A DNA stretch of 64,000 bases, taken from positions 2,313 to 66,312 of the forward strand of contig CALBDO010000019.1 of the NCBI GenBank assembly GCA_937927515.1. The letters are read 5' to 3'. Shown here one piece after another: positions 29,303 to 51,903 of this stretch. The position numbers were made by a program, and so were the translations under genes. This DNA is from Candidatus Kapaibacterium sp. (GTDB lineage: Bacteria > Bacteroidota > Ignavibacteria > Kapaibacteriales > UBA2268). Positions within the stretch are counted from its first letter, which is position 1, and each line of letters begins with the position of its first letter. The notes below the pieces were generated by a model, which was not told the DNA's origin, made no database searches, and was given only the letters and a program-made list of their open reading frames with translations.

Positions 29303-30973
29303 CTAATCCTCGAAGACTTCTCCAATATCCTTGAGTCTTCTAGGTCCAGATTCAATGACCTCTCTTGGGCAACCATCAGCAAATAGTTTGAAATTTTCGA
29401 TATAGCGTGCTGCAAGGCTATCATATCTTTGCCAATATTCGTTCTTGTTCCCCCAAGAGCTTGATGGTTTCAAAACATCATCGGGGACACCTGGGCAATG
29501 CAGTGGTACTTCGAAACCAAAAAGCTTATCTTTACGATAAGGTACATCTTCGAGCAATCCATCTAAAGCAGCATTCAAGAGTGTTCTTGTATGTCTTATA
29601 CTAATCCTTTTGCCAACACCAAATTTACCACCAACCCAGCCAGTATTAACAAGCCAGCATTTTGCGTTGTGTTTCACCATTTTCTCTTTTAATAAATTCG
29701 CATAGTAGAAGGGATGATGTACCATAAACGGTGCCCCAAAACAAGCAGAGAATGTAATTTCTGGCTCAATACCAAGACCTATTTCGGTTCCAGCAATTTT
29801 CGATGTATATCCACTTATAAAATGATACATAGCTTGGTTCATATCCAAGCGGGCTATTGGTGGTAAAACACCAGAAGCGTCGCAAGTCAAGAAGATTACA
29901 TTCTTGGGGTGTTCACGCACCATCTTCTCTTCCACAACGTTTGGAATAAACTCCAACGGGTACGACGCTCTTGTATTTTCGGTAAAATGGTCATCATCTA
30001 AATCTACATTACGAGTTACTGGGTCGTAAACGACGTTTTCAAGTATTGTTCCGAAGCGGCGGGTAGCAGCCCAAATTTGTGGTTCGTGTTCTGCAGAGAG
30101 CCTAATTACCTTTGCGTAGCAGCCACCTTCGAAATTAAAAACACCATCATCGCTCCAGCCATGTTCATCATCTCCAATGAGTCTTCTATTTGGGTCTGCA
30201 GAGAGTGTTGTTTTACCAGTACCACTAAGTCCAAAGAACAAGGCAACATCCCCCTTTTTGCCAACATTAGCTGAACAATGCATTGCCATAACATTTTGCA
30301 TTGGCAAAAGGAAATTCATTATCGTAAAAATTGATTTTTTTATTTCACCACCATAGCTTGAACCCAGAACCAAAGCCAATCGTGCTCCAAAATTAATTAT
30401 TATAGCGGTTTCAGTGCGTGTACCATCAACCCTTGGGTCGCAGCGAAAAGATGGAGCTGCTATTAGTGTAAACTCGGGTACGTGCCGCTTATAATCATCT
30501 TGAGTTTTGGGAAGAAGAAACATATTACGAGCAAACAAACTTTGCCAAGCGCTATCTGTAATCACTCGAATTGGCATACGGTAGTTTGGGTCTGCCCCGA
30601 CATAACAATCTTGAACAAAAAGTTCCTCACCCTCCAAAAAAGCCAGCAATCGATAAAGTAAAGCATAAAACTTTTCGGGCGGGAATGGTCTATTATAGAC
30701 TCCCCACCAAATTTTATCTGCAGTTGTAGGCTCGTAGACTATAAATTTATCATTTGCGGCACGAGCAGTCCACTTGCCAGTATAAACCAGTAAAGGTCCA
30801 CCATTTACTATATGGCCTTCACCTCGAAACACTGCTTCTTCGTAGAGCGCTGGTGTTGGTAGATTCCAAAAAACTCTGTCTAAATTAATAAAACCATGAT
30901 TTGACAATTTAAACTCGCTTGCCAATGCATTTGCATGCTTTGTTGCTGGTGTTTCAAATTCTAAATATTTCAT
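29303..30973 (-). CDS. pckA: Phosphoenolpyruvate carboxykinase (ATP)
   Basis: YGGEIKKSIF, FFGLSGTGKTTLS, IGDDEHGW, FEGGCYAK and ENTRASYP. ATG overlaps the upstream stop (ATGA). Confidence 0.97.
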   Translation of the reverse strand: MKYLEFETPATKHANALASEFKLSNHGFINLDRVFWNLPTPALYEEAVFRGEGHIVNGGPLLVYTGKWTARAANDKFIVYEPTTADKIWWGVYNRPFPPEKFYALLYRLLAFLEGEELFVQDCYVGADPNYRMPIRVITDSAWQSLFARNMFLLPKTQDDYKRHVPEFTLIAAPSFRCDPRVDGTRTETAIIINFGARLALVLGSSYGGEIKKSIFTIMNFLLPMQNVMAMHCSANVGKKGDVALFFGLSGTGKTTLSADPNRRLIGDDEHGWSDDGVFNFEGGCYAKVIRLSAEHEPQIWAATRRFGTILENVVYDPVTRNVDLDDDHFTENTRASYPLEFIPNVVEEKMVREHPKNVIFLTCDASGVLPPIARLDMNQAMYHFISGYTSKIAGTEIGLGIEPEITFSACFGAPFMVHHPFYYANLLKEKMVKHNAKCWLVNTGWVGGKFGVGKRISIRHTRTLLNAALDGLLEDVPYRKDKLFGFEVPLHCPGVPDDVLKPSSSWGNKNEYWQRYDSLAARYIENFKLFADGCPREVIESGPRRLKDIGEVFED

Positions 30974-32187
30974 AACCAATCCCTTATTAATTTCCTTTCA
31001 CCTATATATAGTTCATTGGGAGAATCTGGGTCTAATGCCCATTTTATTCTTTCTACTCCTTCTGTAATATCCTTGACAGAACCACAAGTGGAAAGACGCA
31101 ACCAGCCATCGAGACCAAATTCAATGCCAGGAACAGTAAGAACACGAACTTTATCCAACAAAAACTGGGATAATTTGATAGAGTCTTTCATATAATAACT
31201 AAAATCTGCAAAGCAATAAAAGGTACCATCTGGTTTAAAAGCTTTCACACCTTTAAAAGCATTGAGTCTTTCCAAAAGAATGTTTCGATTGTTTTCTAGA
31301 GTAACTCTCAAACTTTCAACTTGCGTCTGAGGTCCATTCAAAGCTGCAGCAGCAGCAACTTGGGTAACTACAGATGGCCCTGATGTTTGATGGGCTTGGA
31401 TATTGGTCATAGCTTCAATTAATTTACGATTAGCAACAGCCCATCCAATTCTAAAGCCCGTCATAGCATACATTTTCGAAACGCCATTAACAACTATAAG
31501 TTTGGAATTTTCACTTAAGTCTTTGGCATACTTGTAGCAATTAATTGGTTTGCGTCCATCAAAAATTAGCCTGTGATAAATATCGTCCATAATTAAATAT
31601 AATCCGCGTCTTTCACAAAAATCAACAATTTCGGCAATAAGGTTTTCTGAATACATTGCCCCAGTGGGATTATTTGGACTATTGATAATCACAGCTTTGG
31701 TGTACGAAGTCACTCGCTCTTCAATGTCTTCTAGCCTTGGATAAAATGTACCATCTTCTGAAAAAACTGGAACAGGTACTCCACCACAAAGTTTAACCAT
31801 CTCGGGGTAACTTACCCAATATGGGGCAGGGAATATGACCTCCTCTTGTGGATTCAAAATAGCCTGTAGACATACCATAATAGCTTGCTTTGCTCCACTG
31901 GAAGCAATTACATTTTCTGGTGCAACTAATCTGTCGTAGTACTCTTCCGTATAGCGAATTATGGCTTTTTTTAGAGACGGTATTCCATCTGCAGGAGTAT
32001 ACCGGACTTCTCCAGAATTGATTAAATTTGCAGCTGCTACGAGAGCTTCCAATGGAGCTTTACTTTTGGGTTCGCCACCACCAAGGTGAATAACTGGTTC
32101 ACCCTTTTCTCTCAAGATTGCTGCTATCTCGTTAAGCCTCAATGTTGCAGAGGCTTTAATTGTCTTACCAATTAAACTTAAACTCAT
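30970..32187 (-). CDS. Class I/II PLP-dependent aminotransferase (aspartate aminotransferase type)
   Basis: YTPADGIPSLKKAI, GAKQAI, PYWVSY, NSPNNPTG, DDIY, and the PLP-Lys motif SKMYAMTGFRIGW. Confidence 0.93.
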   Translation of the reverse strand: MSLSLIGKTIKASATLRLNEIAAILREKGEPVIHLGGGEPKSKAPLEALVAAANLINSGEVRYTPADGIPSLKKAIIRYTEEYYDRLVAPENVIASSGAKQAIMVCLQAILNPQEEVIFPAPYWVSYPEMVKLCGGVPVPVFSEDGTFYPRLEDIEERVTSYTKAVIINSPNNPTGAMYSENLIAEIVDFCERRGLYLIMDDIYHRLIFDGRKPINCYKYAKDLSENSKLIVVNGVSKMYAMTGFRIGWAVANRKLIEAMTNIQAHQTSGPSVVTQVAAAAALNGPQTQVESLRVTLENNRNILLERLNAFKGVKAFKPDGTFYCFADFSYYMKDSIKLSQFLLDKVRVLTVPGIEFGLDGWLRLSTCGSVKDITEGVERIKWALDPDSPNELYIGERKLIRDWL

Positions 32188-32351
32188 TCTTTTTCACCGT
32201 AGTTTTTGATTTAATACGTATAAAAAAACAAAATTCCAAAAAAACAAAGAGAAAAACAAACAAAAAGACTCTATAAAAAAATTTTGTTTTTAAAAAATTT
32301 TTTAAATTGATATTTTGTAAAATGCAAAATGTTCCAAAATTTGGAGTTTCA

Positions 32352-32924
32352 ATGACTTTTAAAACTGTTCTCCTCGTGTTTTTTCTCATTGTTTATCCTT
32401 CTTTTAGCTCTCCATTTTACCTCTTCCTCGGCGGCACAAACATTATACCAACTGGAAAATTTAAAGAAATAAACAAAACCTCCCTCGGCTTCAACATTTC
32501 TTTCCAAGAGCGTTCGTTCTGTAATTTGTGGTATGGCTTTCGCATCGACGTTTCTAGACTTGACTCTCTTGAAAGCGTTCCTATCAACACGAATTACTTC
32601 GACTCGTACTTGTTGTTCTCTCCTGAAATTAGGTACGTATTTCTCCTATCGGAAAAAAACAAATACGACGACACATTTTATCTTTTCCTTCAAGGACTTT
32701 TACACTTCTCGTCTATTACTCGAAGACAAGAAATTGATGAAAGCAATTTAGGAGTTGGTGCTTCACTAGGCACTGGGATTGGTTTCTGCTTTAAACTGTT
32801 CAAAACTTGCTGGGCCGTTGAAATCGATGGCAAATATTCTGCACCAAACTCCATTCTCAAATCCAAACAAAGACCATCTCTAACAAATTATAACTTCAGT
32901 CTCACATTAGGAGTCAATTTATGA
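32352..32924 (+). CDS. Small outer-membrane beta-barrel protein (about 8 strands)
   Basis: Signal peptide, alternating amphipathic strands, and the C-terminal YNFSLTLGVNL. Start moved to MTFK after a GGAG RBS. Confidence 0.7.
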   Translation: MTFKTVLLVFFLIVYPSFSSPFYLFLGGTNIIPTGKFKEINKTSLGFNISFQERSFCNLWYGFRIDVSRLDSLESVPINTNYFDSYLLFSPEIRYVFLLSEKNKYDDTFYLFLQGLLHFSSITRRQEIDESNLGVGASLGTGIGFCFKLFKTCWAVEIDGKYSAPNSILKSKQRPSLTNYNFSLTLGVNL

Positions 32925-34132
32925 AGAATTTTATACTTTCTCTGATGATTATTTCATTACTTATACTTGGTTCATCTTGTAGAACCATTCAACGTAACGA
33001 TGATGCTCTAAGAATAAAAAAGGACTCGGCCTTTAAATACACTGTTTACCCGTATAATCTGAACATAATCCGCAATGGAAATACGCTTCGGGGAATGGTT
33101 TTAAGACTTGAAACTGTAATGGTGCCAGACAGTTGCGTGGATAATAAAGAGCCAAATTACAAGATCGAAAATCGTGTTGCATTTCTCGATGCAAAAGCAA
33201 GCGATTTAAGATTTGTTGAATATATACCTTTTGATGACGTTGACTTTATTGGGCCTAAATTTGAGCAACCAATCAATGTATTTGAAGATTACAATTATCC
33301 CCTTGAACCTAAGAAATTTAGATTGGTACCTTGGGACACTTTCAAAGTTGAATGCCACGAGTGCAATTGTACTCCCTTCTCATTATCCCTTAAATTGCCC
33401 TCCTTACCATGTATTATTTGCTTTAAATGTCCTGCGAGGATTTGTAAATGGTATTTTATAGAAGTAAGAGCAGGTTATTCAACATACCGTGACAAGATTT
33501 CTCCTTTTAACTCTGTTTGGAAAGATGGTTATTACGGCGAGACTGCCTTTGGAATTAGATTTGGTTATCGCAAGCAATATGGAATCGGAGTACTTCTCTC
33601 AACTGGTTTACCAATTTATAATTCTTTTACTAGTGAGGAAAAGATTAGACCATTAGCACTTTTACACTTCCGCTGGGACCCCTTTAAAAATTGTTGCAAA
33701 CCGCGTGAAAAAACTTTACTTATTAAAGTCCAGGAAAAAGGATGTGATTGTCCCGAAGAGTGTATCGAGGAGGAGAAAAAAGAAAAGTTGGAATTACCCC
33801 ATGAAAAATGCTTCAAGCCTTACTTTTTCGTTCAAAGTGGGATACCACTGGACCAATTCTCTATCGACCTCTTTAAGTTAAACATTTCTCGCTCTGATTG
33901 CAAAGAAAAAGTTAATGCGTCTGCTCCTTATTTGAACGTCAAAACTGTTCCTGTGACATTTACAATTGGTGCTGGGATAGATTACCCAATCTCCTCACAT
34001 ATAGACATCTCAATCGATGCTGGTTGGCGGAGCTACGCTTTTGGAGAGAGCCAAGCATTGCTCGGTTTTTCCAATGTTCCTTCGTACAGAAGAATCAATA
34101 TGTTTTTCATTAGAGCTGGTATAACTTTATAG
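32921..34132 (+). CDS. Cys-rich putative lipoprotein with C-terminal beta-barrel-like domain
   Basis: Lipobox LGSSC, 16 Cys, barrel-like strands (FIEVRAGYS, FTIGAGIDY, ISIDAGWRSY) and C-terminal FFIRAGITL. Confidence 0.65.
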   Translation: MKNFILSLMIISLLILGSSCRTIQRNDDALRIKKDSAFKYTVYPYNLNIIRNGNTLRGMVLRLETVMVPDSCVDNKEPNYKIENRVAFLDAKASDLRFVEYIPFDDVDFIGPKFEQPINVFEDYNYPLEPKKFRLVPWDTFKVECHECNCTPFSLSLKLPSLPCIICFKCPARICKWYFIEVRAGYSTYRDKISPFNSVWKDGYYGETAFGIRFGYRKQYGIGVLLSTGLPIYNSFTSEEKIRPLALLHFRWDPFKNCCKPREKTLLIKVQEKGCDCPEECIEEEKKEKLELPHEKCFKPYFFVQSGIPLDQFSIDLFKLNISRSDCKEKVNASAPYLNVKTVPVTFTIGAGIDYPISSHIDISIDAGWRSYAFGESQALLGFSNVPSYRRINMFFIRAGITL

Positions 34133-34141
34133 GAGAAAAAA

Positions 34142-35017
34142 ATGAAAGCAAAAATCAAAATATTAACGAATTTTGGTTTTCTCATCTACTTTGTCTTTAT
34201 CTTATTTCAATCTTGCGAATGTCCTTTGAAGGAAGCAAATTTGTATTCAAATTGCAAAGTGCGAGAGGCAACAATCACAAAATTTAACCCTAATGGTACA
34301 ATACAACAGGTTTCCAATCCCGATGGAACTTATGATTTGGTTTTTGTTCCAGACTCTTTGTACTCAATACACACGTTCCTTTTTCCATTTGAAGCAAATT
34401 TGTCTGGCTCGTTGGTAAATGATGAAAGATTTGCCAAAAGCTCGACAATTCCCATTGTTAAAATTCCTTTTTCTGATGGTCGACCATATTATATTTCAAT
34501 CTTTGACAATTATCCACAAAATAATGATATGAATGGGGATATCTTACTATATTACGTAGCAGATGATTTCTCTTACGCAGAGATTCGTGTTGCTGGAGAA
34601 TTAGTCAGAATTAATCAAAATTTCAATTCAGAAAATTCATCTGATTTTTGCGACTTCATCAACAATTTTACACGCGACACCGCTGAAATAGCAAGATTGA
34701 AATCGGATTTGAAAAAATTTGGATTAAATGCAAGGAACACTGATAGTTACGCTCAAAATTATACCAGCGGAAATATTGTTGTCCTTGATGTCAACAACAA
34801 CATCGTAGCAAATATTACACCATTACAAACAGACATAGACCAAGCTCTTCAAAAAACAACTAACAAATCAGTTAACGTCCGGGTGAGTATCGGGCAAGTT
34901 TATCTTTATCGTGCCAGAAATGGAAAATATTTCATTTTTGCAATCACAGATATTCGACAAGGAACACTGAGCCCATTCAAACGTAGATTAACAATTATGT
35001 TCAGTGAAGTAAATTAA
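34142..35017 (+). CDS. Uncharacterised lipoprotein
   Basis: Lipobox LFQSC followed by ECP. C-terminal VYLYRARNGKYFIFAITDI beta-hairpin pattern. AGGAG RBS. Confidence 0.65.
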   Translation: MKAKIKILTNFGFLIYFVFILFQSCECPLKEANLYSNCKVREATITKFNPNGTIQQVSNPDGTYDLVFVPDSLYSIHTFLFPFEANLSGSLVNDERFAKSSTIPIVKIPFSDGRPYYISIFDNYPQNNDMNGDILLYYVADDFSYAEIRVAGELVRINQNFNSENSSDFCDFINNFTRDTAEIARLKSDLKKFGLNARNTDSYAQNYTSGNIVVLDVNNNIVANITPLQTDIDQALQKTTNKSVNVRVSIGQVYLYRARNGKYFIFAITDIRQGTLSPFKRRLTIMFSEVN

Positions 35018-35029
35018 TAAGGAGGTTAT

Positions 35030-37714
35030 ATGCACAAATCTTTTTTCCATTTATATATCGTTTTTTTAATACTTTTAATTTCTTGTTCAAAGCCCAACAT
35101 CGTAAGGGAATTACCCGTCGGAAATTTGACTAAAATTTCTGCAAATAATTCACCAAATACAAAAATCGACGATGTAGCACCAATTCAACAACCCAACAAT
35201 TTAGCCTTAATCGACCCCTGCGAAAAGGAAGAAAACTTTGTCGCTTCTGGTATATTTGATGGTATTATGACTTCATCCGAATTTATTAGAAAGACCTTTC
35301 CAGTGACCGACTACAACAGCGAGGCTGTAAATTATTTAACATCTAATGTTGAATCCATTACATTTTTAACAGCGACAGAGGGATACGCTGCTTTTTCGCA
35401 TCCTCCATCCACAAAATACATACAGAAGTATGAACTGCCTCTTGAAGGTTCAATCGGTGGTACAGACATTTTTTACTTTGCACCCAAAGGGTCCAAGATT
35501 TTCTTCACTGTGCTACCCGAGCCAGTTAATTCAGAGTTTTGGGACTCACATCCTTTCGTCACCAATGATATTGTTGGTAATCAACTTCTTATTTGGGCTT
35601 CCGACAGGAAGGATAACAGAAACGGTTTTAGTTTTCCATACCAAAATCAAGGAAATACCGACTTGTACTTTGCTTTTAAAAAACCTTACGAAGACTGGAG
35701 CGAAGTCCAAATTCACAACTTTTCTGAAATATCCCCAGATATAAACACAAAATACTTCGAAGCAACTCCTTTTCTATTTTGTAAATGTTACAATCCAAAA
35801 CTTATTTTTGCTTCTAACCGAGACACGAAAGATTCCACCTACGATATCTTCTATGTAGACCTTGAAATTGATTTCATCAACCAGAAAATCACACAAAAGG
35901 GAAATGTCAAAAAAATTCAAGAAGGTGAAAAGTATATAAATACAACTGCCGATGAACGTTTTCCGTTCATTCCGTATCCACATGTTAGAAAAGCCAACTC
36001 GGAGCTAAACATTTATTTCACCTCGGATAGATATCGCGATTCTGTTGTTTTTAGAACAAAGGACTCCTTGGGTAAAGAAACTCATATAATTTTAAAAAAT
36101 GTCGGTGGATACGACTTATACAGATTTACACTTCAGAACAGAGAATTCACTTGCTCCCCTCCCCCTCCACCTAAACTTTATCTCATAGTACACCTAAACG
36201 AGTATTGCTACGATTTCAATGGCAATTTATCAGACTCCACCATCGATGTTAACGGATTATATTTGATGAACGCAAAAACTTGCTCAGCAAAGACAAAATA
36301 TGAACTTGAACTTGGAACGAAATACAGGCTTGAAGTTAAAGATATTTTTGGTGGTTGCCAATCAAATTGCGATTCATGCTTTTCAACAAGTATAGAATTT
36401 ATTACGCCAAAGAAAATATATCAAGATACAACATTGGAAATGACTCTAAGTAAACATTGTATTAAAAAACCACCAAAAACCGTAAGCTTCTCAATGAAAA
36501 AGGGCTTAGCATTTTTTGTTACTGGTTATTGGTACCCCACTACTATGAGTAATTTACAAGAGCTTTGGCGGCGCTCTGCCAGTGGTTGCCTTACACTGTC
36601 AAATTTCATAGATTCCACAGATTTTAGGCCAGACGAAAGATATTTCTACGTTAGTGCTGCAGAAACAAACGATAAATGGTTAAATACCTACTTCTACCCC
36701 ACAATCGACTCCCTCCTTCAAATATTGGATACATGCTATTCCAATCAAAAGATATTGATAACTGTACATGGATATACAGACCCTTGTCCACTTAGAACTG
36801 TAAGAGACCAGGCTGGAAGAATTATTCAAGATAGCACAAGATTTACCTGCGATGAAAGTTTTATCTTTAAACGCAATGATGTTAGTATCGTTATTCCTCA
36901 AGGGGTACTAATGAAATTCCCAGATTTAAAAACTACCGAGGGTAAACAATTCAAGCCGCCTTTCGGAACTCAACAAGGGAATTACTTGCTTGCCATGCTT
37001 CGAGCATATTTTACAGAACAAACTTTAAGGAACGGTTTTAAAGCAAAATATTCGCAAAATCCTGAAAAAATAATGCTTTTCGAAAAGTATGTAACCTTTT
37101 CTTTAAATGCATACGGGATTTACGATGAACGACCACCATGCCCAGACATTGATAAAGATATTGTAGGAATTGAATTAGCCAACAAGCCATATCCACCTAC
37201 TTTAAATGAACCTTGCAACTTGCCGCATAGTAGAAGAGTGATGATATATGTGGATGTTGTAAACCAGCAACTTTTGGATAAAAGAATCTTTGCAAGGGAG
37301 GAATGTGGAAAATTGAATTATCAAATGTTAGCAATAAAAGAAAAACCCCAAGCTACGCCACCTTCAAAACCGTTTTCAGACGAAGAATTAGCAATAAATC
37401 TTGATACATTAGAAAGTGATTTGCCAAAAACAAATGAAAAGCCCAGAGGATTCATATGTCCGGGTAAATGTTATCGGGTAGTTTATGGTCCAGCAAGAAC
37501 CATCGAGGAATATATTTTCTTGAGCAATTTGTTGCAGTCCCTTGGATTTGAAATCGACGAAGATGAATCAGACAAACTGAAATTAGTCTCCAAAGAAAAA
37601 TTTAATTCAGAAAAAGATGCGATGGAGCTTTTACAAAAGCTTCAAGAGGAATTAAAAAAACTCACACCAATTATCGATATTAAAAGAGTTAAAGCATATA
37701 TAGAGATAATCTAA
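35030..37714 (+). CDS. PorE-like lipoprotein: PD40-type propeller, Ig-like linker, divergent OmpA-like domain, SPOR-like C-terminus
   Basis: Lipobox LISC. PD40-like repeats (WDSHPF...IWASDR, EATPF...IFASNR, ERFPF...YFTSDR). OmpA-like HGYTDP...NYLLAMLRA...SRRV, then YRVVYGP. GGAGG RBS. Confidence 0.7.
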   Translation: MHKSFFHLYIVFLILLISCSKPNIVRELPVGNLTKISANNSPNTKIDDVAPIQQPNNLALIDPCEKEENFVASGIFDGIMTSSEFIRKTFPVTDYNSEAVNYLTSNVESITFLTATEGYAAFSHPPSTKYIQKYELPLEGSIGGTDIFYFAPKGSKIFFTVLPEPVNSEFWDSHPFVTNDIVGNQLLIWASDRKDNRNGFSFPYQNQGNTDLYFAFKKPYEDWSEVQIHNFSEISPDINTKYFEATPFLFCKCYNPKLIFASNRDTKDSTYDIFYVDLEIDFINQKITQKGNVKKIQEGEKYINTTADERFPFIPYPHVRKANSELNIYFTSDRYRDSVVFRTKDSLGKETHIILKNVGGYDLYRFTLQNREFTCSPPPPPKLYLIVHLNEYCYDFNGNLSDSTIDVNGLYLMNAKTCSAKTKYELELGTKYRLEVKDIFGGCQSNCDSCFSTSIEFITPKKIYQDTTLEMTLSKHCIKKPPKTVSFSMKKGLAFFVTGYWYPTTMSNLQELWRRSASGCLTLSNFIDSTDFRPDERYFYVSAAETNDKWLNTYFYPTIDSLLQILDTCYSNQKILITVHGYTDPCPLRTVRDQAGRIIQDSTRFTCDESFIFKRNDVSIVIPQGVLMKFPDLKTTEGKQFKPPFGTQQGNYLLAMLRAYFTEQTLRNGFKAKYSQNPEKIMLFEKYVTFSLNAYGIYDERPPCPDIDKDIVGIELANKPYPPTLNEPCNLPHSRRVMIYVDVVNQQLLDKRIFAREECGKLNYQMLAIKEKPQATPPSKPFSDEELAINLDTLESDLPKTNEKPRGFICPGKCYRVVYGPARTIEEYIFLSNLLQSLGFEIDEDESDKLKLVSKEKFNSEKDAMELLQKLQEELKKLTPIIDIKRVKAYIEII

Positions 37715-37734
37715 TTTTTTTTAAATCATGTTTC

Positions 37735-37773
37735 AAGCTGAACAAGGAATTTCCTTGTTCAGCTTTAATTTTT
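37735..37773 (+). terminator. Rho-independent terminator closing the 32352-37714 operon
   Basis: Perfect inverted repeat aagctgaacaagg-aattt-ccttgttcagctt (13-bp stem, 15-nt complementary arms) followed by taattttt, 20 nt after the stop. Confidence 0.88.
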
Positions 37774-37817
37774 AAGTAAATTTTTTTTATATTCCTTTTT
37801 TGAACATAGAGTGAAAT

Positions 37818-38299: not shown

Positions 38300-38608
38300 T
38301 TATTCTTGTTGGTTTTTGTCTTTATCCTTTAATATAATTATTTCTAAAAAAGGAGATAAAAACTTTCCTTCTTTTTCTACAAATTCACGCACTTTTGGCT
38401 TTAGATAAGTTTCATCCAAATAAGAATACAAAATATTCGATAAAATTGAAAGATGGTTTTCGACTGGAAGGTTCTTATTGAGCACAATGATTTTTTCATT
38501 TTTAAAAAGACAAGCCCCACCAGCAAAATTACCATTATCACGTCGAATTTTAAACCCTATAGATTTTAAAGCTTCCAACATTTCATTAAATAATTCTTTG
38601 CTCTTCAT
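38300..38608 (-). CDS. Hypothetical protein (weak resemblance to the IrrE/ImmA N-terminal region, no HExxH)
   Basis: GFKIRRDNGNFAGGACLFKNEKIIVLNKNLP pattern. Third gene of the ligA run. Confidence 0.55.
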   Translation of the reverse strand: MKSKELFNEMLEALKSIGFKIRRDNGNFAGGACLFKNEKIIVLNKNLPVENHLSILSNILYSYLDETYLKPKVREFVEKEGKFLSPFLEIIILKDKDKNQQE

Positions 38609-39131
38609 TTTTTCTAAGTGGTTTAAAAAAGAATAAGAATACAATCGTAAAAATTGCAAGCCAATTGTATATTATCAAAAAGGAGAATTTTTTAAATCTA
38701 TCATAGAAAAAGCTTTGAATTTCCTGAGAGTAATAACTAACACTCGAAGAAAAAAACACATACAAATTTAACCTAACGTCGAAGTACGAAAGAATCATTT
38801 CGGAAACAAAAGCAAGGACATAAAGAAATGTGGAAATTAACAACCAGCCCTCTTTCTTGAAATTTGATTTAATCTTTGGTAAAAGAAAGAAAAATGAAAC
38901 AACGGTTAGCAAAAATCCTGTAATGGTATAAATAGAACCGACAGCAAAGTTTCGAACGGTTATTAATGCAATTTTTTCATCTGCCCAAGGACGCAAAACT
39001 ATTGTTTGTTTATTACTTAGCTCGAAAATGTCGTAAGCGATTGAACTTCTCGTTATAGAGCCGCCAATCCAAATAATTATCCCTATGAAAAATAATGTAA
39101 CAAAAATTTTCCCCTTTTTGGACAAATCCAT
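38586..39131 (-). CDS. Hypothetical four-TM membrane protein
   Basis: Four hydrophobic segments. Starts 15 nt after the ligA stop. Confidence 0.65.
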   Translation of the reverse strand: MDLSKKGKIFVTLFFIGIIIWIGGSITRSSIAYDIFELSNKQTIVLRPWADEKIALITVRNFAVGSIYTITGFLLTVVSFFFLLPKIKSNFKKEGWLLISTFLYVLAFVSEMILSYFDVRLNLYVFFSSSVSYYSQEIQSFFYDRFKKFSFLIIYNWLAIFTIVFLFFFKPLRKNEEQRII

Positions 39132-41379: not shown

Positions 41380-43035
41380 ATGAAACTAGTTTGTATAATT
41401 TTAGTTACTATTCTATTATCAAGCGCAAAAATTTACACAAGTGACCTTCAAATATCAGCACTACCACAAATAATTAACTCCAAATTTGATGAATACCCTT
41501 GTACAATTTTTAAAGACCATTTAATTTTCATTAGAAAAAAGGATGAACAATTTACGCCTTTTTCATTCCATCTAAACAACTTTAACCAAGTTTTTAAATT
41601 TAAAATTCAAGAGCACTATCAAAGACTCAAAGGTAGCTTTCTATCAATTTTTGAAACAGATAACAAGAATTATATTTTATTTTCTGGCAAAGAGAGAAAT
41701 AAACAAGACTTTGACATTTTTTTGCTGGTCGAAAAATCTAATAATAAAGCTCAACTCTTTAGGAAATCAGAAATTAACACACCTCTTTTCGATTCCTATC
41801 CACAATTTGTAAATAATGGAGCAAAGGTTCTATATTCTCGGGAAGTAGCCGATAGTATTCCTAACATAGACATTTTCTTTGCTACTTTTGAAAATGGAGA
41901 AATTGTTGCTCCAAAGCCATTTTCAATTGTAAACACTAAAGAGAACGAAATAACTCCATTTATGGATGATGGCGGTAATTTATACTTTGCCAGATGGGAT
42001 TCAACTAACTATAACCTCTATAAAGCTGAGAGGATAAATGATACTCTTTGGGGTCAACCAAGATTACTCCCACCTCCGATTAATTCCGAGTATAATGAAA
42101 TATCCCCCGTTGTTTACAATAATAAAATTTTCTTTGCAAGTGATAGAAATAAAAATGGTTTCGACATTTTCGTAGCAAATCTTTGTTTACCAGTTTTACT
42201 CCAAATAAATTTCAAAGAAAGCATTAAGCTATTTTCCAATTTCGATAAAATTATAATTTTAGAGGAAAACCAAAATGTCATTGAACAAAAATATCTTGGA
42301 ATTGAATCAAGTCTTTTGTACAACTTAGAACCAAATAAGGCATATTCGATTAAAATTTTTAATGAATGTACCAATGAGTCTTTTTTTTCTACAAACTTTA
42401 CAACATCATGTAATGACACTTCTTACACAAAGTATGTCGTTAAATACGAGGTGAGCAACAATTTAACTAAAGAACAAAACATACCATTCTTTTTAACTGG
42501 ATATTACAAACCCATAACAAAAAATAACTTAAATCAATTGAAAAAACTTTTTGATTATAACTTAATAGGGCTTGATGATTCTACAAGTTACGTAGAATAT
42601 CCCAGCCATCAATATTATGATTACTCTGAGCGAGTAAAAAATGCTCTTGATGAAATAGTGGACCACATCGGATACTTTGCTCATTTGTTTGAGAAAGGCT
42701 GTATTTCGAAAGACAAAGTATTTATAATTGAAATAATCGGATATGCAGACCCAAGACAGTTTTCACCAAACGCTCGTTTCTTCGAAGAATCAATTAGCGA
42801 CGACGAGTTTGGTACTTATTTTCCAAAAGGAATGCAAATGACAAACGACCATCTTGGAAAATTGCGAGCATACTTTACTGCGAAAGAGTTGAATGATTTG
42901 ATGATAAGTAAGTTTGGAAAAAATTTTGTAGAAAATAATATTAAGTGGGAAATACGCAGTGGTGGTGTTATCAATGAAAATGAGGATTATTTGTTACTTA
43001 GAAAAGTTAATGTGAAAATTAAATTTGAAGAATGA
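41380..43035 (+). CDS. PD40-propeller plus divergent OmpA-like domain protein (paralogue of 35030..37714)
   Basis: Signal peptide. INSKFDEYP, INTPLFDSYP, VNTKENEITPF, INSEYNEISP...FFASDR repeats. FFLTGYYKP, IGYADP, NDHLGKLRA, LRKV. Confidence 0.72.
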   Translation: MKLVCIILVTILLSSAKIYTSDLQISALPQIINSKFDEYPCTIFKDHLIFIRKKDEQFTPFSFHLNNFNQVFKFKIQEHYQRLKGSFLSIFETDNKNYILFSGKERNKQDFDIFLLVEKSNNKAQLFRKSEINTPLFDSYPQFVNNGAKVLYSREVADSIPNIDIFFATFENGEIVAPKPFSIVNTKENEITPFMDDGGNLYFARWDSTNYNLYKAERINDTLWGQPRLLPPPINSEYNEISPVVYNNKIFFASDRNKNGFDIFVANLCLPVLLQINFKESIKLFSNFDKIIILEENQNVIEQKYLGIESSLLYNLEPNKAYSIKIFNECTNESFFSTNFTTSCNDTSYTKYVVKYEVSNNLTKEQNIPFFLTGYYKPITKNNLNQLKKLFDYNLIGLDDSTSYVEYPSHQYYDYSERVKNALDEIVDHIGYFAHLFEKGCISKDKVFIIEIIGYADPRQFSPNARFFEESISDDEFGTYFPKGMQMTNDHLGKLRAYFTAKELNDLMISKFGKNFVENNIKWEIRSGGVINENEDYLLLRKVNVKIKFEE

Positions 43036-46541: not shown

Positions 46542-49500
46542 TTAGTTTTTGAAAAATTGATTAATATAAATCTTGTTTAAATTCGAGATTTTTATAAAAT
46601 ATATTCCAGAGGGTATACTTCCTATAGGAATTACAATCTCACTTGAACAATTGACAGAAGGATATGAGAAACTTAAAACTTCTTTACCAAGAACATCAAT
46701 TATCGTCACCTCCATCGGAAGTTGAAAATCTTCGGTAAAGAAAAAGAGCTTGTCCTCAGCTGGATTGGGATAGAGCGAAATCAAACAATTCGCGTTATAC
46801 TCCACCCCAGAAATCTGTTGCTTTCCAACACCCAATAAATTAACAGCTATTGTAAATGGTTCAGCATCGCTTTCAATAATTAATTTTGCCGTTCGAATCC
46901 CTTCGGCTTTTGGAACGAATCGAACTCTAATTTGAATTTCTTCACCTGGGGAAATGCTATTTGGAACACTTCCAAAAATTTTAAATTCGTCGGCAATAGA
47001 CGAAATTGTATCAATACGCACATTAATGTTAGCAGGCACATTGCCAGTATTTTTCAAACTTATTGTCTTAAGCTTATTAGAGCCGACTAATACTGTATCA
47101 TAGTTTAGTGTGTTTTCGGAAATTAACTGAATTTCTTTTTTTGTTTCTAAAGGAACCAGGTTAAAATCGAGATAAGAGACGCCCAATCCTACTTGCCACA
47201 ACCTGACAATCGATTTACTGATGACAATGTTTGCTCCCGTTTCAATTTGTCCGGTGTATTCGTTCAATACAGTCACCCAATTTTCTCCAAGGTCGGATGT
47301 GCCAAGTATTTGTCCTCCGTTACACAAGATATACATCAATTTTGAATTCTCTGGAGTGAATAGATAAACCGGCACCAAGCCATTTTGAGTAAAATTATAT
47401 TGTCGAACCCTCCACGTTTTGCCACCATCAGTAGTTGTTGCCAAATAAAAAGGAGCAGTTGCATCTGTTGTTTCCTTGTATACAGCCATTCCAACCAAGC
47501 TATCCCTGAAGGTAATATAGTTTACAATAGCAGCGTTTGGAATATTGGAGAAAGACCAACTTTTACCACGATTAGAAGAAATAAACACTCTTCCAGTACT
47601 TGTTCCAAACCAAACATAGTCTTTCCAGCGAGTAGTTGAATTAACGAAACCGGTTTCGTTTGTCTGAGGCAAGGGAATGCCAAGTACTGGTAGCCACGAA
47701 TCGCCACCATCGGTTGTACGACCAATTCCCCAATTGCCATTCTTTGGGTCGCCGAGAAAAATACCTTCTTTTGAATCAAAGAAATAGATTGCATTAACAA
47801 AACCAGTTATACTTGAAACATTGTATGAGGTCCAAACTTGTCCGGCATTGCCAGTTTTATAAATATATGCAGTGGTCTGATTTTGACTACCACTGCCAGC
47901 AAAAGCTATAGTTGAGCTAACACCTTCGATACAAAAAATTGGTTGATTAGCTATATAATTCGCCGAACTTGTCCCCGAACGAAGCAAGACAAAGCCGCTA
48001 TTAGAACCAAACATACCTCCTTGACCCACCACCCAAAGGCAATCAAATTGTGGAGAGGAAGCTCCATACCAAGTAGGCTTATAAGCATCTGGCAAAGTAA
48101 AAACTTTTGTTAAACGATTACTTGAATTAATTTGAATAGGTAAGGAAAGAATTTGATAATCTATATAATTTCCCGATTCGAATGTACACAACAAATTAAC
48201 ATTACCAAGGTACCAGGGGTTGTTTTCAAGTAATGTAATAGTTAGATTCACATCTTTTTCAGATAGAGTTCCGAGCGTACCAAGAGCAAATTCATTTTGA
48301 CTAAGTGAGATTATATTTTGTAATGGCGAAATTTTTAGAGTAACATTCCCAGCAGCACCTAAAAAGTTTTTAATTTTCAGTTGTAGAACTTTGGGATTAT
48401 AATCTGTAATGGCATTACCTTGAGCAAATTTGTAAGAGATAATTTCAATTCCTGGCACACTTGGAGCACTAGGGGAATTATAATACACTGCCTTGTAAGC
48501 ATTAACTTTGCCATAATAGTAAGGTTTTAAATTTGGCTGTGAAATTACCAGATTGTCTGATGTTGAACGAATTTGATGTAAAATTTGCTTAGGAGACCAT
48601 TCCTTGTGAATAGATGCAATTAGTCCAGCAACACCAGCAACTATTGGAGCCGCCATTGAAGTACCATTTTGATTTGAATATGAACTATTGGGCATAGTAG
48701 AGTAGACATTTTGTCCCGGGGCGTAAACTGTAACTTTAATCCCCCAATTGGAAAAACTTGTGACGTTGTTAGCACTATTTGAAGCCCCAACACACAATAC
48801 GTTATCATAACCAGCTGGGTATTGGCCACCATAATCAATGTACATACCATCATTACCAGCAGCAACAACAACGAGACTGCCCTTTTCGAGAGCGTAGTTA
48901 ATTATATCTTGCTCAGCTGGGCTATAACCGGGACCGCCCCAACTGCAATTAATTACTTTAGCACCCATATTTGCAGCGTAGACTATTGCCTCGTATCCAC
49001 GAAAAATCCCCATACCACCAACATCTGGAGAACATTTTATTGGAAGAATGGAACAACTAAATCCGGGAGAGGCAATACCGACGCCATTGTCCGTTACAGC
49101 TGATGCTAAACCGGCAACATGCGTACCGTGAAAACCTTGAATATTGGTTGGGTCATTATCCTCACGATAAATTCCGCTCATGAGTTGTTGAGTAGTCACA
49201 TTCCCAACAAAATCCCAACCCCTAACATCATCAATTTTACCATTTCCATCATCATCTACATTATTTCCGGGCACTTCCTTAGGGTTTGTCCAAATATTTG
49301 CTAATAGGTCCGGATGGTTCCAATCGACCCCGCTGTCAACAATTGCAATCACAACATTCTTAGAGCCTTTCGTAATATCCCAAGCTCGTGGTAAACTAAT
49401 GTTGTTTATCTGCCATTGTTGATTAATCCTTGGGTCGTTAGGTATGTAATCAAATGTCTTGCGAATGTAGATTGGCGTCGCATACTCAACATCTGGCAAT

Positions 49501-49928
49501 TGGTTAAGTTCATTGCAAACTTCATATGGGTCTATTTCATCAGAAAAGTATATTTCCAATATTTTCTCAATACCAGTGGAACTGGTAGACAATGGAGAAG
49601 CAGTGGTGCCATCAAAAAAAGGGGCTCGGATTTTTGCAACATTATACTTTGATAGAATTGTCGATATGCTACTCGAATAAATTCTCGAATAGTTTTTATC
49701 ATATTCGACGATTTGTTTAGTTTTAATGTGGATAGCTTTCTTAATCAAGAACTCCTCGGGAACACGGTAGATTGGAACGATTTTAGCTTTACCATATTGA
49801 TTTTCGGCATCAATTGATAAATAATATTCAACATTCTTTTCCAAAGACTTCGATTGAGAATTGATAAAAACGGTCGAAAAAGAATAGTTAAAAGTAATCA
49901 AAAGCAAAAGGAAGACTAATTTTTTCAT
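46542..49928 (-). CDS. Secreted S8 subtilase with Asp-box/BNR propeller, Ig-like (ASH/choice-of-anchor D) domain and T9SS CTD
   Basis: Catalytic triad AIVDSG, FHGTHVAG, GTSMAAP. Repeats TTDGGDSW, SSNRGKSW, TTDGGKTW and TSDLGENW. CTD LYPNPAED...GIYFIKI. Start moved to MKKLVF. Confidence 0.9.
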   Translation of the reverse strand: MKKLVFLLLLITFNYSFSTVFINSQSKSLEKNVEYYLSIDAENQYGKAKIVPIYRVPEEFLIKKAIHIKTKQIVEYDKNYSRIYSSSISTILSKYNVAKIRAPFFDGTTASPLSTSSTGIEKILEIYFSDEIDPYEVCNELNQLPDVEYATPIYIRKTFDYIPNDPRINQQWQINNISLPRAWDITKGSKNVVIAIVDSGVDWNHPDLLANIWTNPKEVPGNNVDDDGNGKIDDVRGWDFVGNVTTQQLMSGIYREDNDPTNIQGFHGTHVAGLASAVTDNGVGIASPGFSCSILPIKCSPDVGGMGIFRGYEAIVYAANMGAKVINCSWGGPGYSPAEQDIINYALEKGSLVVVAAGNDGMYIDYGGQYPAGYDNVLCVGASNSANNVTSFSNWGIKVTVYAPGQNVYSTMPNSSYSNQNGTSMAAPIVAGVAGLIASIHKEWSPKQILHQIRSTSDNLVISQPNLKPYYYGKVNAYKAVYYNSPSAPSVPGIEIISYKFAQGNAITDYNPKVLQLKIKNFLGAAGNVTLKISPLQNIISLSQNEFALGTLGTLSEKDVNLTITLLENNPWYLGNVNLLCTFESGNYIDYQILSLPIQINSSNRLTKVFTLPDAYKPTWYGASSPQFDCLWVVGQGGMFGSNSGFVLLRSGTSSANYIANQPIFCIEGVSSTIAFAGSGSQNQTTAYIYKTGNAGQVWTSYNVSSITGFVNAIYFFDSKEGIFLGDPKNGNWGIGRTTDGGDSWLPVLGIPLPQTNETGFVNSTTRWKDYVWFGTSTGRVFISSNRGKSWSFSNIPNAAIVNYITFRDSLVGMAVYKETTDATAPFYLATTTDGGKTWRVRQYNFTQNGLVPVYLFTPENSKLMYILCNGGQILGTSDLGENWVTVLNEYTGQIETGANIVISKSIVRLWQVGLGVSYLDFNLVPLETKKEIQLISENTLNYDTVLVGSNKLKTISLKNTGNVPANINVRIDTISSIADEFKIFGSVPNSISPGEEIQIRVRFVPKAEGIRTAKLIIESDAEPFTIAVNLLGVGKQQISGVEYNANCLISLYPNPAEDKLFFFTEDFQLPMEVTIIDVLGKEVLSFSYPSVNCSSEIVIPIGSIPSGIYFIKISNLNKIYINQFFKN

Positions 49929-49959
49929 ACCCATCAACAGATTAATTTGACATAATAAA

Positions 49960-51903
49960 CTAATACTCCTGAACAACATTTAATGAATAACCTTTTGTTT
50001 TCGTACCCAAGAAAACAAGAGTGTAATTTTTACCAAAGGAAAGAAAAATGTCGCTGAACTGGTTAATAATTCGATTAGAAATATTGTCGAATATGACTAA
50101 AGAAAATTTTCTTTCTAAAAAAACTTTTTCTACTTGGCTGAAACTACCGTACGACAATTCATTAACAATAGTTTTTGTTTTCGAGCTATCGTAAAAAATT
50201 CCAATATTTCGAGCTTCTGGGCTAGCGTTAAAAAACCTCCTTCGGTACGAATTCATTTCTTTTCCCATAGAAGAAATGGAAGCGTCGAAAAGCTCAATTT
50301 CGTCTTTCGACCCAGTTACAATGTATAAACCCATCTTGTTTTCATCCAACGACAAAGAGTAAGCGGTCTCATTAATTATTATTTGGTTTATATCTCGAGG
50401 TAAAACTGTAGCAAAACTTTCTTTGTACGCCAACTTTATGTTTGCAAAATGCTTTGGGATAGAGCAGGTTAAAAATTCGGCGTATGGGAATCCATTCAAT
50501 AATTGAATAAAAATACCACGAGCAAGATTTGAAATTCGGATATCTTGGCTCTCTTCTGGAATTAAACTCAATTCAATTCCTTTGTCTCGTGATTTATAAA
50601 TTACAATCAAATACGACTTATTAGCTTCTACAGCAGAATAAAAGGATTTTAATAAAATTGATGGTTCTGTGGCTGAAAACAAAGTTAGGGGGAGATATCC
50701 TGGCTCTACCAAAACTGGTGAACCTATTTTATTGCTTTTTAGATTTGCTGCCAAAACTTCACCCGATGCGAAGCCAGTCTTAATACTACTTAGATTTCTA
50801 GTACCCACAGACAAGGTCATACCAAAATTTGTATCAATGGCATTTACAACTCTTACTGCTGCATAACCACTTTGCTTCACCTTTTCATTTAATGGAGGCA
50901 CCATTAATAACTTCTTATCGTGGTGCGTACTATCGAAAATTAAAAGAGTATATCTTTTCAAAACTTCAAAGGAATAGACATAAACAGTGCGATTAGAAGA
51001 ATAGCTTATTTCAAGAGTATCAGGAAAATCACTTGTACAAGCCGACAACCTAAAGTATGGGGACACCCAGCCACTTTCTAAATTGTCTGAAATTATTGTA
51101 GCGGGAGATTTAGTTAAAGTGACATTTTCTGAAGCAAAATTTGCTACTCGAATGAAAGAATGTTTATTCTCGACTGGGGATAATTCAACTAAATTTGTAG
51201 ATAAGGAATCATAGTCATTATAAAGGAATAATGAATAGGTTCCATCCTTTTTTTGAACAAAAAAAAGAGTATATTCATTGTCCTCCAAAAAGTTCACAGA
51301 ATAGATATCAATTAAATTTGAATTAACCCCATTATTTACTACCACAGAAATTGTGTAATTACCGAAAGGAACTGTCTTCAAATATGGATATGCAAAATAA
51401 GGAACGTTGGAAATAAGTACCTTTCCATTAGGACAGCCTTCTACAATTGAGACTTTTAAAATTGAATCCCGAACCAAATTGACAAACTTAAAATGTGCAT
51501 TGCCTTGCTTTCGAGGTAGCCCAAAAGTAGTTGCAAGGACCATAAATGTATCTACATCAGCGCCCTCCTTTAAACTTCGTCCAGCAATAATTAAATACCT
51601 TGTTTCTCTAACAAGCCGTATCTTTCTCTCGGGGGAGTGGACTTTTTTATTATTTTGATACAATTCAATCTTAATCGAGTCGTAAGGAGGAGGCATACTC
51701 GAGGCGGTTAAACCAAGATATTCTACTGAATTAGAATAAACATTTCCATTGTATCCCCAAGATATTACATCATTTGAGTTAAAAGCATTGAGCAATCTAA
51801 TTCTTATACTTTGATATGGTGGAGGGGGATTCACCAACTTTGGGTCTTCCTCTGCACAAGATGCAAAAATGTAAAATATTATAATCCAATATATTTTCTT
51901 CAT
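49960..51903 (-). CDS. Multi-repeat DUF4397-like lipoprotein
   Basis: Lipobox FASC followed by acidic AEED. Repeats begin IRLLNAF, FKFVNLV, IRVANFA, VRVVNAI, IQLLNGF and RRFFNAS. Confidence 0.72.
   Translation of the reverse strand: MKKIYWIIIFYIFASCAEEDPKLVNPPPPYQSIRIRLLNAFNSNDVISWGYNGNVYSNSVEYLGLTASSMPPPYDSIKIELYQNNKKVHSPERKIRLVRETRYLIIAGRSLKEGADVDTFMVLATTFGLPRKQGNAHFKFVNLVRDSILKVSIVEGCPNGKVLISNVPYFAYPYLKTVPFGNYTISVVVNNGVNSNLIDIYSVNFLEDNEYTLFFVQKKDGTYSLFLYNDYDSLSTNLVELSPVENKHSFIRVANFASENVTLTKSPATIISDNLESGWVSPYFRLSACTSDFPDTLEISYSSNRTVYVYSFEVLKRYTLLIFDSTHHDKKLLMVPPLNEKVKQSGYAAVRVVNAIDTNFGMTLSVGTRNLSSIKTGFASGEVLAANLKSNKIGSPVLVEPGYLPLTLFSATEPSILLKSFYSAVEANKSYLIVIYKSRDKGIELSLIPEESQDIRISNLARGIFIQLLNGFPYAEFLTCSIPKHFANIKLAYKESFATVLPRDINQIIINETAYSLSLDENKMGLYIVTGSKDEIELFDASISSMGKEMNSYRRRFFNASPEARNIGIFYDSSKTKTIVNELSYGSFSQVEKVFLERKFSLVIFDNISNRIINQFSDIFLSFGKNYTLVFLGTKTKGYSLNVVQEY

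Follow-up and report, generated by a model that had tools for sequence, protein, structure and literature searches.

A four-gene envelope operon of Kapabacteria and Ignavibacteria as a candidate tether between the outer membrane and peptidoglycan

Four tightly packed open reading frames (ORFs) on the + strand, here called g1, g2, g3 and g4, form an operon at 32352-37714 of a 64,000-nucleotide (nt) stretch of contig CALBDO010000019.1 from Candidatus Kapaibacterium sp.; this whole stretch is referred to as the window. We propose that the operon is a module of the envelope, specific to this lineage, by which the outer membrane is tied to peptidoglycan, a reading to which we give a probability of about 0.5. 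We favour it because the genes carry signals of co-transcription (an overlap or 9-12 nt gaps, strong ribosome-binding sites and a single terminator), because their order is conserved between unrelated flanks in about 45 species-level genomes, and because variant loci pair a g2-like barrel with a g4-like protein, paralleling the PorP-PorE pairing (PMC9143113). It is further supported by the predicted barrel fold of g2, the OMP_b-brl family of g1 and the g4 domain order (propeller, sandwich, OmpA_C-like, SPOR-like), as well as by an invariant triad that matches the peptidoglycan-contact residues of PorE, profile evidence for OmpA_C and Pfam SPOR matches in relatives. Moreover, deleting the architecturally related protein CHU_0125 compromises outer-membrane integrity and leads to more vesicles being released (PMC5891637). 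From this evidence, we infer a physical association of the four proteins, binding to peptidoglycan and a physiological role in outer-membrane integrity or invagination.

The coordinates of the operon and its parts are collected in Table 1. An earlier note on this region, made by a model from the letters alone, had described four tightly linked genes with an ATGA overlap, gaps of 9 and 12 nt and AGGAG/GGAGG ribosome-binding sites, and this is how the ORFs and junctions read: g1 and g2 overlap by ATGA with AGGAG ahead (TTAGGAGTCAATTTATGA), g2 and g3 are separated by a 9-nt gap with AGGAG (TAGGAGAAAAAAATG), and a 12-nt gap with GGAGG lies between g3 and g4 (TAATAAGGAGGTTATATG). For g1, a TTG at 32307 could also serve as start codon; the ATG at 32352 was favoured because a GGAG sits 7 nt 5' of it. 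In the leader, a promoter search gave no convincing sigma-70-type site, and no Rfam match (riboswitch or small RNA) was obtained. The operon had also been called terminator-bounded, which holds on the 3' side, where mscL follows past the terminator; on the 5' side lies a divergent aminotransferase gene (30970-32187, - strand). The terminator hairpin (37735-37765) starts 20 nt past the g4 stop and is followed by TTTAATTTTT. Both the hairpin and the T-run announced by the note are there, the perfect stem being 14 bp rather than 13 bp long, with a 3-nt loop. The hairpin folds with a free energy of -21.1 kcal/mol (z = -5.8), a stability that was reached by none of 200 shuffled sequences.

All four proteins carry export signals: g1 has a plain signal peptide, and the lipobox Cys is conserved in g2, g3 and g4. 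The export signal on every gene and the three lipoboxes reported earlier hold family-wide. Direct Pfam and NCBIfam scans of the window copies of g1, g2, g3 and g4 returned no matches, and sequence and profile searches of the PDB with the four proteins gave nothing useful. The base composition of the operon is like that of its neighbourhood, with no signal of horizontal transfer, and the operon is therefore regarded as a resident gene set.

We then examined the distribution of the module. Homologues of g4 were searched in a collection of 5.8 billion proteins, and loci were scanned in one genome per GTDB species, which returned 80 loci. To count gene orders, all ORFs of these loci were searched with jackhmmer profiles of g1-g4; 65 loci had enough upstream sequence, and the ranges given below are the ORF-boundary noise of the counting script. 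The 60 g4 homologues were all found in metagenome-assembled genomes (MAGs) labelled Ignavibacteria, Kapabacteria/Kapaibacteria or 'FCB group'. Three of them, only 30-35% identical to g4, lie in the same row of four genes (about 190, 375, 290-300 and 900-1000 amino acids (aa)) within entirely different neighbourhoods, and BLASTP identified the upstream genes as g1, g2 and g3 homologues. Across species, the order g1-g2-g3-g4 was observed between unrelated flanks in about 44-47 of the 65 assessable loci, with median gaps of -4, 3 and 5 nt; the homologues are strongly syntenic.

Two variants of the locus were encountered. The order g1-g2-g4, in which g3 is absent, occurs in about 6-9 of the 65 loci, and g2-X-g4 in 8 of them; both keep a g2-like barrel gene directly upstream of the g4-like gene. 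X, which stands in place of g3, is a lipoprotein of 640-760 aa with Ig-like (HYDIN/ASH-type) repeats. The g2-X-g4 loci, namely L010 (5158-9932), L051, L067, L077, L079, L080, L082, L085 and L091, have no g1, and their g4-like protein measures about 630-900 aa, and its shortest forms, of about 630-645 aa (L010 is an example), are devoid of the SPOR-like tail.

By their labels or, where these are doubtful, by sequence identity, the operon carriers all appear to be Kapabacteria/Ignavibacteria. The window's organism is of the Kapaibacteriota type, with one fragment (L019) at 92% identity and the complete Kapaibacterium Ch6 genome at 67%. About twenty carrier MAGs of one co-assembly project (L013, L018, L022, L025, L027 and others) are titled 'uncultured Hyphomicrobiales', Alphaproteobacteria or Patescibacteria. 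These labels look like placeholders or mis-binning, and we treated 'uncultured Hyphomicrobiales' as a placeholder, because the module proteins of these MAGs share over 60% (at most 62%) identity with their counterparts in Ignavibacteria MAGs.

The protein that gives the module its predicted function is g4. Its lipobox reads LLISC, and Cys19 is kept in at least 90% of 40 sequences. In an AlphaFold2 model built with 40 sequences (mean predicted local distance difference test score (pLDDT) of 83), the lipoprotein signal is followed successively by an N-terminal region with a propeller, a β-sandwich, an α/β domain (aa 488-745), a flexible linker and a β-α-β-β-α-β domain. The propeller is of the PD40 type: Pfam PD40 was matched by 5 of 40 family members (best 4e-13), the consensus contains the repeats IN[TS]xx[DE]xxP and GxxD[IL][FY], and the family hidden Markov model (HMM) reaches, through the propeller region, the canonical PD40-CarboxypepD_reg-OmpA protein of L049 (624 aa, E 3e-12). 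In a whole-chain Foldseek search, g4 matched generic 5- and 6-bladed propellers, led by GH43 enzymes and sialidases at low TM-score; because the propeller dominates this comparison, it is silent on the C-terminal domains and warrants no catalytic reading. No tetratricopeptide repeat (TPR) was matched by Pfam in any of the 40 family members, and the N-terminal region of the model consists of short helices and strands only. The β-sandwich occupies the position of the carboxypeptidase-regulatory-like domain (CRD) of PorE, where the relative L010 (5e-4) and the canonical protein of L049 (7e-5) gave weak matches to CarboxypepD_reg. Overall, g4 shares the architecture of PorE and CHU_0125 and probably also a common ancestry with these proteins.

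We next turned to the α/β domain of g4. Its secondary-structure order in the model agrees with that of OmpA_C (β-α-β-α-β-β). D584 (in GYTD), N651 and R658 (in NxxLxxLRAY) are invariant in 40 sequences and are followed by RRVxIY, so that the invariant motifs reproduce the OmpA_C signature GxTD / NxxLSxxRA / NRRV. In the crystal structure of PorE, the side chains holding a peptidoglycan fragment are D576, N584 and R591 (PMC7192894), to which D584, N651 and R658 of g4 correspond, with an N-to-R spacing of 7 in both proteins. The D-to-N spacing is 67 in g4, 8 in PorE and 32 in a paralogue encoded in the window, which indicates an insertion of ~60 residues within the binding loop of g4. With the insertion kept, hhalign aligned the g4 domain to the OmpA_C profile in the correct register at P 0.003; with the insertion cut out, a trimming made post hoc, the probability was 91% (E 1e-6). 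Searched against 177,635 PDB sequences, the trimmed profile gave five matches (E 0.02-0.9), all of them OmpA_C-like (PA0833-PD, RmpM, Rv0899, OmpA) and aligned at the same motifs. A jackhmmer search started from E. coli Pal retrieved 14 canonical OmpA_C domains among the loci and no g4. Four lines of evidence from sequence and model point to a very divergent OmpA_C-like domain at aa 488-745, which is not C-terminal in g4.

The C-terminal position is held by the β-α-β-β-α-β domain. Pfam SPOR (PF05036) was matched by 2 of 40 g4 relatives, and one of these, P0039, has its match (1e-7) at the position homologous to aa ~810-870 of the window protein. The window tail itself reached E 0.1 and 13 bits (cut-off, 21 bits), and its hhalign alignment to a Pfam-verified SPOR profile had a probability of 61% (P 8e-5), shifted by one half-repeat. 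A jackhmmer search from the P0039 SPOR domain reached no other g4 tail. A SPOR-like nature of the g4 tail is probable.

The gene that most consistently accompanies g4 in the variant loci, g2, encodes a lipoprotein with a predicted barrel. In its AlphaFold2 model (37 sequences, mean pLDDT 82), aa 28-142 form a compact N-terminal domain, and aa 178-402 make up eight long strands. These strands were matched by Foldseek to NspA, OmpW and the transmembrane domain of OmpA, with TM-scores of 0.55-0.62 on the target and E values of 1e-5 to 4e-4; moreover, OMP_b-brl was matched weakly by 7 of 37 family members, and the terminal residue is a conserved L, F or Y. On the model, the barrel is 8-stranded and of the NspA/OmpW/OmpA-transmembrane kind. 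PorP/SprF identity was ruled out for both g1 and g2, as these barrels are predicted to be 8-stranded and PorP_SprF was matched by no family member. The N-terminal domain carries the invariant motifs DDAVRIKxD (right after the lipid Cys), RNGNTLRG and IPxEDVDFIGPKF, and no relatives of it were detected in the PDB or Pfam. This lipidated domain should lie in the periplasm, given the even number of strands and the established topology of outer-membrane proteins, by which barrels of this sort have their C-terminus on the periplasmic side. As for the richness in Cys emphasised earlier, g2 does contain 16 of them (g4 has 20), whereas the Cys-rich insert (aa 254-298) is a variable, low-confidence loop that is absent in distant homologues and is no defining feature of g2. 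Five other cysteines (C148, C150, C170, C297 and C327) are invariant or nearly so in the whole family.

The first gene of the operon would encode a second, smaller barrel. PF13505 (OMP_b-brl) was matched by 13 of 42 g1 family members (best E 2.8e-8), the window copy itself giving no match, and a mature length of ~170 aa with a hydrophobic C-terminal residue is compatible with eight strands. These features fit a small OMP_b-brl-type barrel, 8-stranded by length and family, and g1 homologues occupy the same position in most loci. The idea that g1 is a copy of the g2 barrel was unsupported by profile comparison (probability, 5%).

The third gene, g3, belongs to an orphan family. An exhaustive HMMER search of 1.84 billion representative proteins delimited this family to 90 clusters, all of ~290 aa. 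No relatives were found in Pfam, NCBIfam or the PDB when the family members and a 44-sequence profile were searched. We ruled out that g3 is a duplicate of the g2 N-terminal domain or of a part of g4, the profile-profile alignments being limited to the signal peptides. A relation of g3 to X as its short form was not significant (P ~0.008 across the last ~50 residues of X and the g3 C-terminus).

Table 1. Positions of the operon, its predicted domains and its flanking signals in the window
Feature	Positions	Strand	Description
Divergent intergenic region and leader	32188-32351	+	AT-rich; presumed operon promoter
g1	32352-32924	+	190 aa; predicted secreted small outer-membrane β-barrel, non-lipoprotein; C-terminus ...LTLGVNL
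g2	32921-34132	+	403 aa; lipoprotein, invariant Cys20; conserved N-terminal domain and predicted C-terminal 8-stranded barrel
g2 N-terminal domain (aa 28-142)	33002-33346	+	pLDDT mostly >90; invariant columns
g2 predicted barrel (aa 178-402)	33452-34126	+	Eight long strands; variable Cys-rich loop aa 254-298; two-helix loop aa 310-345
g3	34142-35017	+	291 aa; lipoprotein, invariant Cys25; orphan family
g4	35030-37714	+	894 aa; multidomain lipoprotein (Cys19); PorE/CHU_0125-like architecture plus SPOR-like tail
g4 N-terminal region and PD40-type β-propeller (aa ~20-370)	35087-36139	+	
g4 β-sandwich (aa 383-479)	36176-36466	+	Strands in model; position of the PorE CRD
g4 putative divergent OmpA_C-like domain (aa 488-745)	36491-37264	+	FFVTGYW, VHGYTD(584), N651-YLLAML-R658-AY, RRVMIYV
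g4 insertion (aa 585-650)	36782-36979	+	~60 residues between triad Asp and Asn; small strands in model, pLDDT 61-92
g4 C-terminal probable SPOR-like domain (aa ~810-894)	37457-37711	+	β-α-β-β-α-β; model pLDDT 85-93
Intrinsic terminator	37735-37775	+	14-bp stem, 3-nt loop, T-rich tail

Several other genes related to g4 were observed. The paralogue mentioned above lies in the window at 41380-43035 (+). This protein of 551 aa combines a signal peptide with a PD40-like propeller, a β-sandwich and the same kind of divergent OmpA-like motifs (FFLTGYY, GYADPR, NxxLGKLRAYF, RKVNV), with an insertion of 32 residues and no SPOR-like tail. It is matched by the g4 HMM (2e-27) and by the NCBIfam CHU_0125_OmpA model (1e-12), remaining under the thresholds of both the PorE and the CHU_0125 models, and it could be the PorE/CHU_0125 counterpart of this lineage. 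In L018, its equivalent immediately precedes g1. L041 (6001-9636) and L049 (5914-9549) each encode a solo g4 homologue of 1211 aa, in which the β-sandwich is present in three tandem copies and which has no g1-g3 upstream. In L049, a protein with a type IX secretion system (T9SS) C-terminal domain (CTD) of type A is encoded directly upstream of the solo g4, and a canonical PD40-CRD-OmpA gene (PorE/CHU_0125-like) lies 4 kb off on the opposite strand. In L017 (3821-5058 and 5950-8516), g2 and g4 are each broken into two ORFs by a frameshift, pseudogene formation or an assembly error.

Two further loci of the window are of note. At 46542-49979 (-), an S8 peptidase of 1145 aa with a Por_Secre_tail (type-A CTD) is encoded; the organism therefore has a T9SS, and the peptidase gene is unlinked to the operon in other genomes. 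Between mscL and ligA (38300-39131, -), two overlapping small ORFs of 119 and 181 aa gave no Pfam match; the larger one encodes a multi-pass membrane protein, and both are, as far as checked, conserved only in identical contigs.

The architecture of g4 invites comparison with PorE, an outer-membrane lipoprotein with TPR, β-propeller, CRD and OmpA_C-like domains that binds peptidoglycan and PorP; the latter is a 14-stranded FadL-type barrel, itself holding type-B CTD cargo, and six porP-like genes of Flavobacterium johnsoniae adjoin porE-like genes (PMC9143113). As in the PorE (PG1058)/PorP/PG1035 sub-complex, which anchors the T9SS of Porphyromonas gingivalis to peptidoglycan, the operon encodes a lipoprotein with a propeller, a sandwich at the CRD position and an OmpA_C-like domain that carries a D/N/R triad, next to a predicted outer-membrane barrel (PorE, in addition, is bound to its barrel), and both systems belong to the Bacteroidota/FCB lineage. 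In contrast to PorE, g4 has no TPR, its putative clamp, the OmpA_C-like domain, is too divergent for PF00691, ~60 residues are inserted in the triad and a SPOR-like tail is added; moreover, the predicted g2 barrel is 8-stranded and not of the 14-stranded FadL/PorP type. Neither type-A nor type-B CTDs were found on g1-g4 or X by Pfam and NCBIfam, and, unlike PorP-PorE, the operon has no CTD cargo gene. On the NCBIfam models, distant g4-like proteins scored 97 bits for CHU_0125 (1e-27; cut-off 620) and 83 bits for T9SS_PorE (2e-23, L010; cut-off 600). Thus, g4 departs from the PorE family in several of the features that define it: there is no TPR, the model cut-off is not reached, and neither a PorP-type partner nor a cargo is present.

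CHU_0125 of Cytophaga hutchinsonii ('chuPal', NF053607 'OmpA-like outer membrane integrity protein') is similarly a single lipoprotein in which a TolB-like PD40 propeller is fused to a Pal-like wall-binding domain. It contains TPR, PD40 and OmpA_C, and its deletion impairs outer-membrane integrity and increases vesicle release about six-fold (PMC5891637); a weak, vesiculating outer membrane is also the phenotype that we would predict for loss of the operon. It differs from g4 by its TPR, by a canonical OmpA_C domain (40% identical to E. coli Pal), by the absence of SPOR and of any reported dedicated barrel or lipoprotein operon partners. The predicted parts of the module, namely an 8-stranded barrel, a lipid anchor, a peptidoglycan clamp of the OmpA_C type and a TolB-type propeller, recur in OmpA and Pal/Tol-Pal of Proteobacteria, and so, presumably, does the task of linking the outer membrane non-covalently to the wall. 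Here, the barrels are on separate chains, propeller and clamp are fused, and sequence similarity is limited to the clamp motifs. None of the genes tolQ-tolR-tolA-tolB-pal-cpoB was found in the operon or within 10 kb, which, together with the fusion of propeller and clamp, ruled out Tol-Pal identity. SusC/SusD identity was likewise ruled out, with no Pfam match to TonB_dep_Rec, Plug or SusD and with predicted 8-stranded instead of 22-stranded barrels.

SPOR proteins (RlpA, FtsN, DedD, DamX) are envelope proteins with a C-terminal β-α-β-β-α-β domain, and RlpA is a lipoprotein of the outer membrane that ends in a SPOR domain. The tail of the window g4 differs from them in falling below the Pfam threshold and in lying behind an OmpA_C-like clamp in the same chain. 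In literature searches, we found no description of an OmpA_C-like clamp and a SPOR-like domain in one chain, nor of the four-gene module.

These comparisons bear on what the earlier note had made of the operon. It had seen no correspondence to SusCD, Tol-Pal or PorP-PorE-cargo systems and had suspected an undescribed system, and the Pfam and NCBIfam scans, the strand number of g2 and the literature searches agree. Of the three outcomes that it had set against its own reading, namely homologues without any synteny, a clean fit to a described complex and a lack of predicted barrel or OmpA folds, none was observed. The two barrels that it announced are borne out by the g2 model with its Foldseek matches and by the PF13505 matches of the g1 family. 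Its description of g4 as PorE-like stands for the lipoprotein, PD40 propeller, possibly CRD-like sandwich and OmpA_C-like domain; the clamp is far more divergent than it implied, and the TPR is absent. The SPOR-like end that it saw is probable from Pfam SPOR at the same position in relatives, the window copy reaching only E 0.1.

In the arrangement that we favour, g1 and g2 would be 8-stranded barrels embedded in the outer membrane, and g2, anchored by its lipid as well, would present its conserved domain to the periplasm. g3 would act as an accessory outer-membrane lipoprotein, and g4 as a lipid-anchored periplasmic strut, the propeller of which probably docks on the periplasmic domain of g2 and/or on g3. 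The β-sandwich could serve as a spacer toward the wall, where the OmpA_C-like domain would bind the meso-diaminopimelate stem peptide via D584, N651 and R658, and the SPOR-like tail may add affinity for glycan strands, possibly for peptide-free strands at division sites. The outcome would be a non-covalent staple between outer membrane and wall, like PorP-PorE, CHU_0125 or OmpA/Pal, with barrel and wall-binding functions on separate proteins.

Several observations weigh against this arrangement. PF00691 was matched by none of 40 g4 family members at E <= 0.1, and the NCBIfam models of PorE (NF052230) and CHU_0125 (NF053607) gave no match to the window g4 at E <= 1. The best profile match to OmpA_C owes its strength to the post hoc trimming, and the insertion removed there sits within the binding loop, where it might alter the binding of the ligand or prevent it altogether. 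Similarly, the SPOR assignment is marginal for the window copy. g3 is without an assignable fold or role and is missing from about 6-9 otherwise complete loci, being dispensable in some lineages, and g4 stands alone in 4 of 65 loci. The four sequencing runs that hold the locus are all DNA metagenomes, with no RNA run among them, and the argument for complex formation comes from synteny.

Other readings of the same data were considered. Since g4 appears to have the domain order propeller, CRD, OmpA_C of PorE, it might be a PorE equivalent or paralogue that anchors a T9SS-related assembly or surface protein, with g1/g2 replacing PorP-like barrels and g3 or X being the anchored or partner protein. 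Such a T9SS accessory would agree with the scores of distant g4-like proteins on the NCBIfam T9SS_PorE (2e-23) and CHU_0125 (1e-27) models, far under the cut-offs as they are, with the presence of cargo in the genome (the S8 peptidase at 46542-49979) and with the resemblance of X (640-760 aa, Ig-like repeats) to surface or adhesin-type proteins. We nevertheless consider it unlikely: PorP-like partners are 14-stranded FadL-type barrels, whereas g2 is predicted to have eight strands and no member matches PorP_SprF, g4 has no TPR, and Pfam and NCBIfam detect no type-A or type-B CTD on g1-g4 or X. Core T9SS genes were linked to the module in none of the examined loci. A type-A CTD protein does adjoin the module in about 7 of 88 loci, a frequency that is roughly that of chance and that was obtained with an ad hoc HMM whose coverage is type-A and not type-B CTDs. 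Moreover, a canonical PD40-CRD-OmpA protein co-exists with g4 in at least one genome (L049), and g4 is therefore not simply the PorE orthologue.

The presence of propeller, OmpA_C-like and SPOR-like domains in one chain might instead denote a Tol-Pal-like machine of the division site, in which g4 combines TolB-, Pal- and RlpA/DedD-like parts, its tail recruits it to septal peptide-free glycan, and barrels and lipoproteins pull the outer membrane inward. SPOR domains are indeed septal targeting modules, and murein-synthesis and envelope genes (Mur ligases, MraY, SurA in L004 and L006) lie near several loci, although conservation does not extend to the neighbouring genes. The window tail is not securely identified as SPOR, the shorter paralogues and the shortest g2-X-g4 variants do without the tail, the operon contains no TolQRA-like motor or inner-membrane partner, and the CHU_0125 mutant is without a division defect (PMC5891637), all of which makes a division machine quite improbable. 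Least probable, to our mind, is that OmpW/OprG/AlkL-like barrels pass hydrophobic compounds which the lipoproteins bind or hand over, in uptake or export of small molecules or lipids, or that four envelope proteins are merely co-expressed and unassembled. OmpW, OprG and AlkL, which conduct hydrophobic molecules, are among the Foldseek matches of g2, and g3 and the g2 N-terminal domain have no assigned function. However, the same list is led, with equal scores, by barrels that do not transport (the OmpA transmembrane domain, NspA, Ail), no operon protein resembled an enzyme, a periplasmic carrier or a component of ABC or RND systems in the Pfam and NCBIfam scans, and transport would leave unexplained why the variants so strictly pair a g2-like barrel with a putative wall-binding strut.

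Attachment of the outer membrane to the wall in diderm bacteria outside Proteobacteria is known from few cases: next to OmpA, Pal and Lpp, there are PorE and CHU_0125 in Bacteroidota and SlpA/OmpM elsewhere. While the concept of such a tether is already known, the module itself is undescribed and would represent a further, distinct solution, found in a lineage that is little studied and for the most part uncultured. More tentatively, Kapabacteria and Ignavibacteria might possess a dedicated four-protein staple made of three orphan families and a re-engineered PorE/Pal-type clamp with an insertion in its binding loop and a SPOR-type second reader, that is, a dual-reader anchor on 8-stranded barrels, which could possibly replace tethering of the Lpp or Tol-Pal type at the division site. 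Three new envelope protein families are defined here (g1, the g2 N-terminal domain with its barrel, and g3). The candidate OmpA_C-like subfamily, missed by current Pfam and NCBIfam models, matters for the annotation of peptidoglycan-binding proteins in metagenomes. Finally, a barrel and a PorE-like strut are paired here in a conserved way, which suggests that the principle behind PorP-PorE is broader than type IX secretion.

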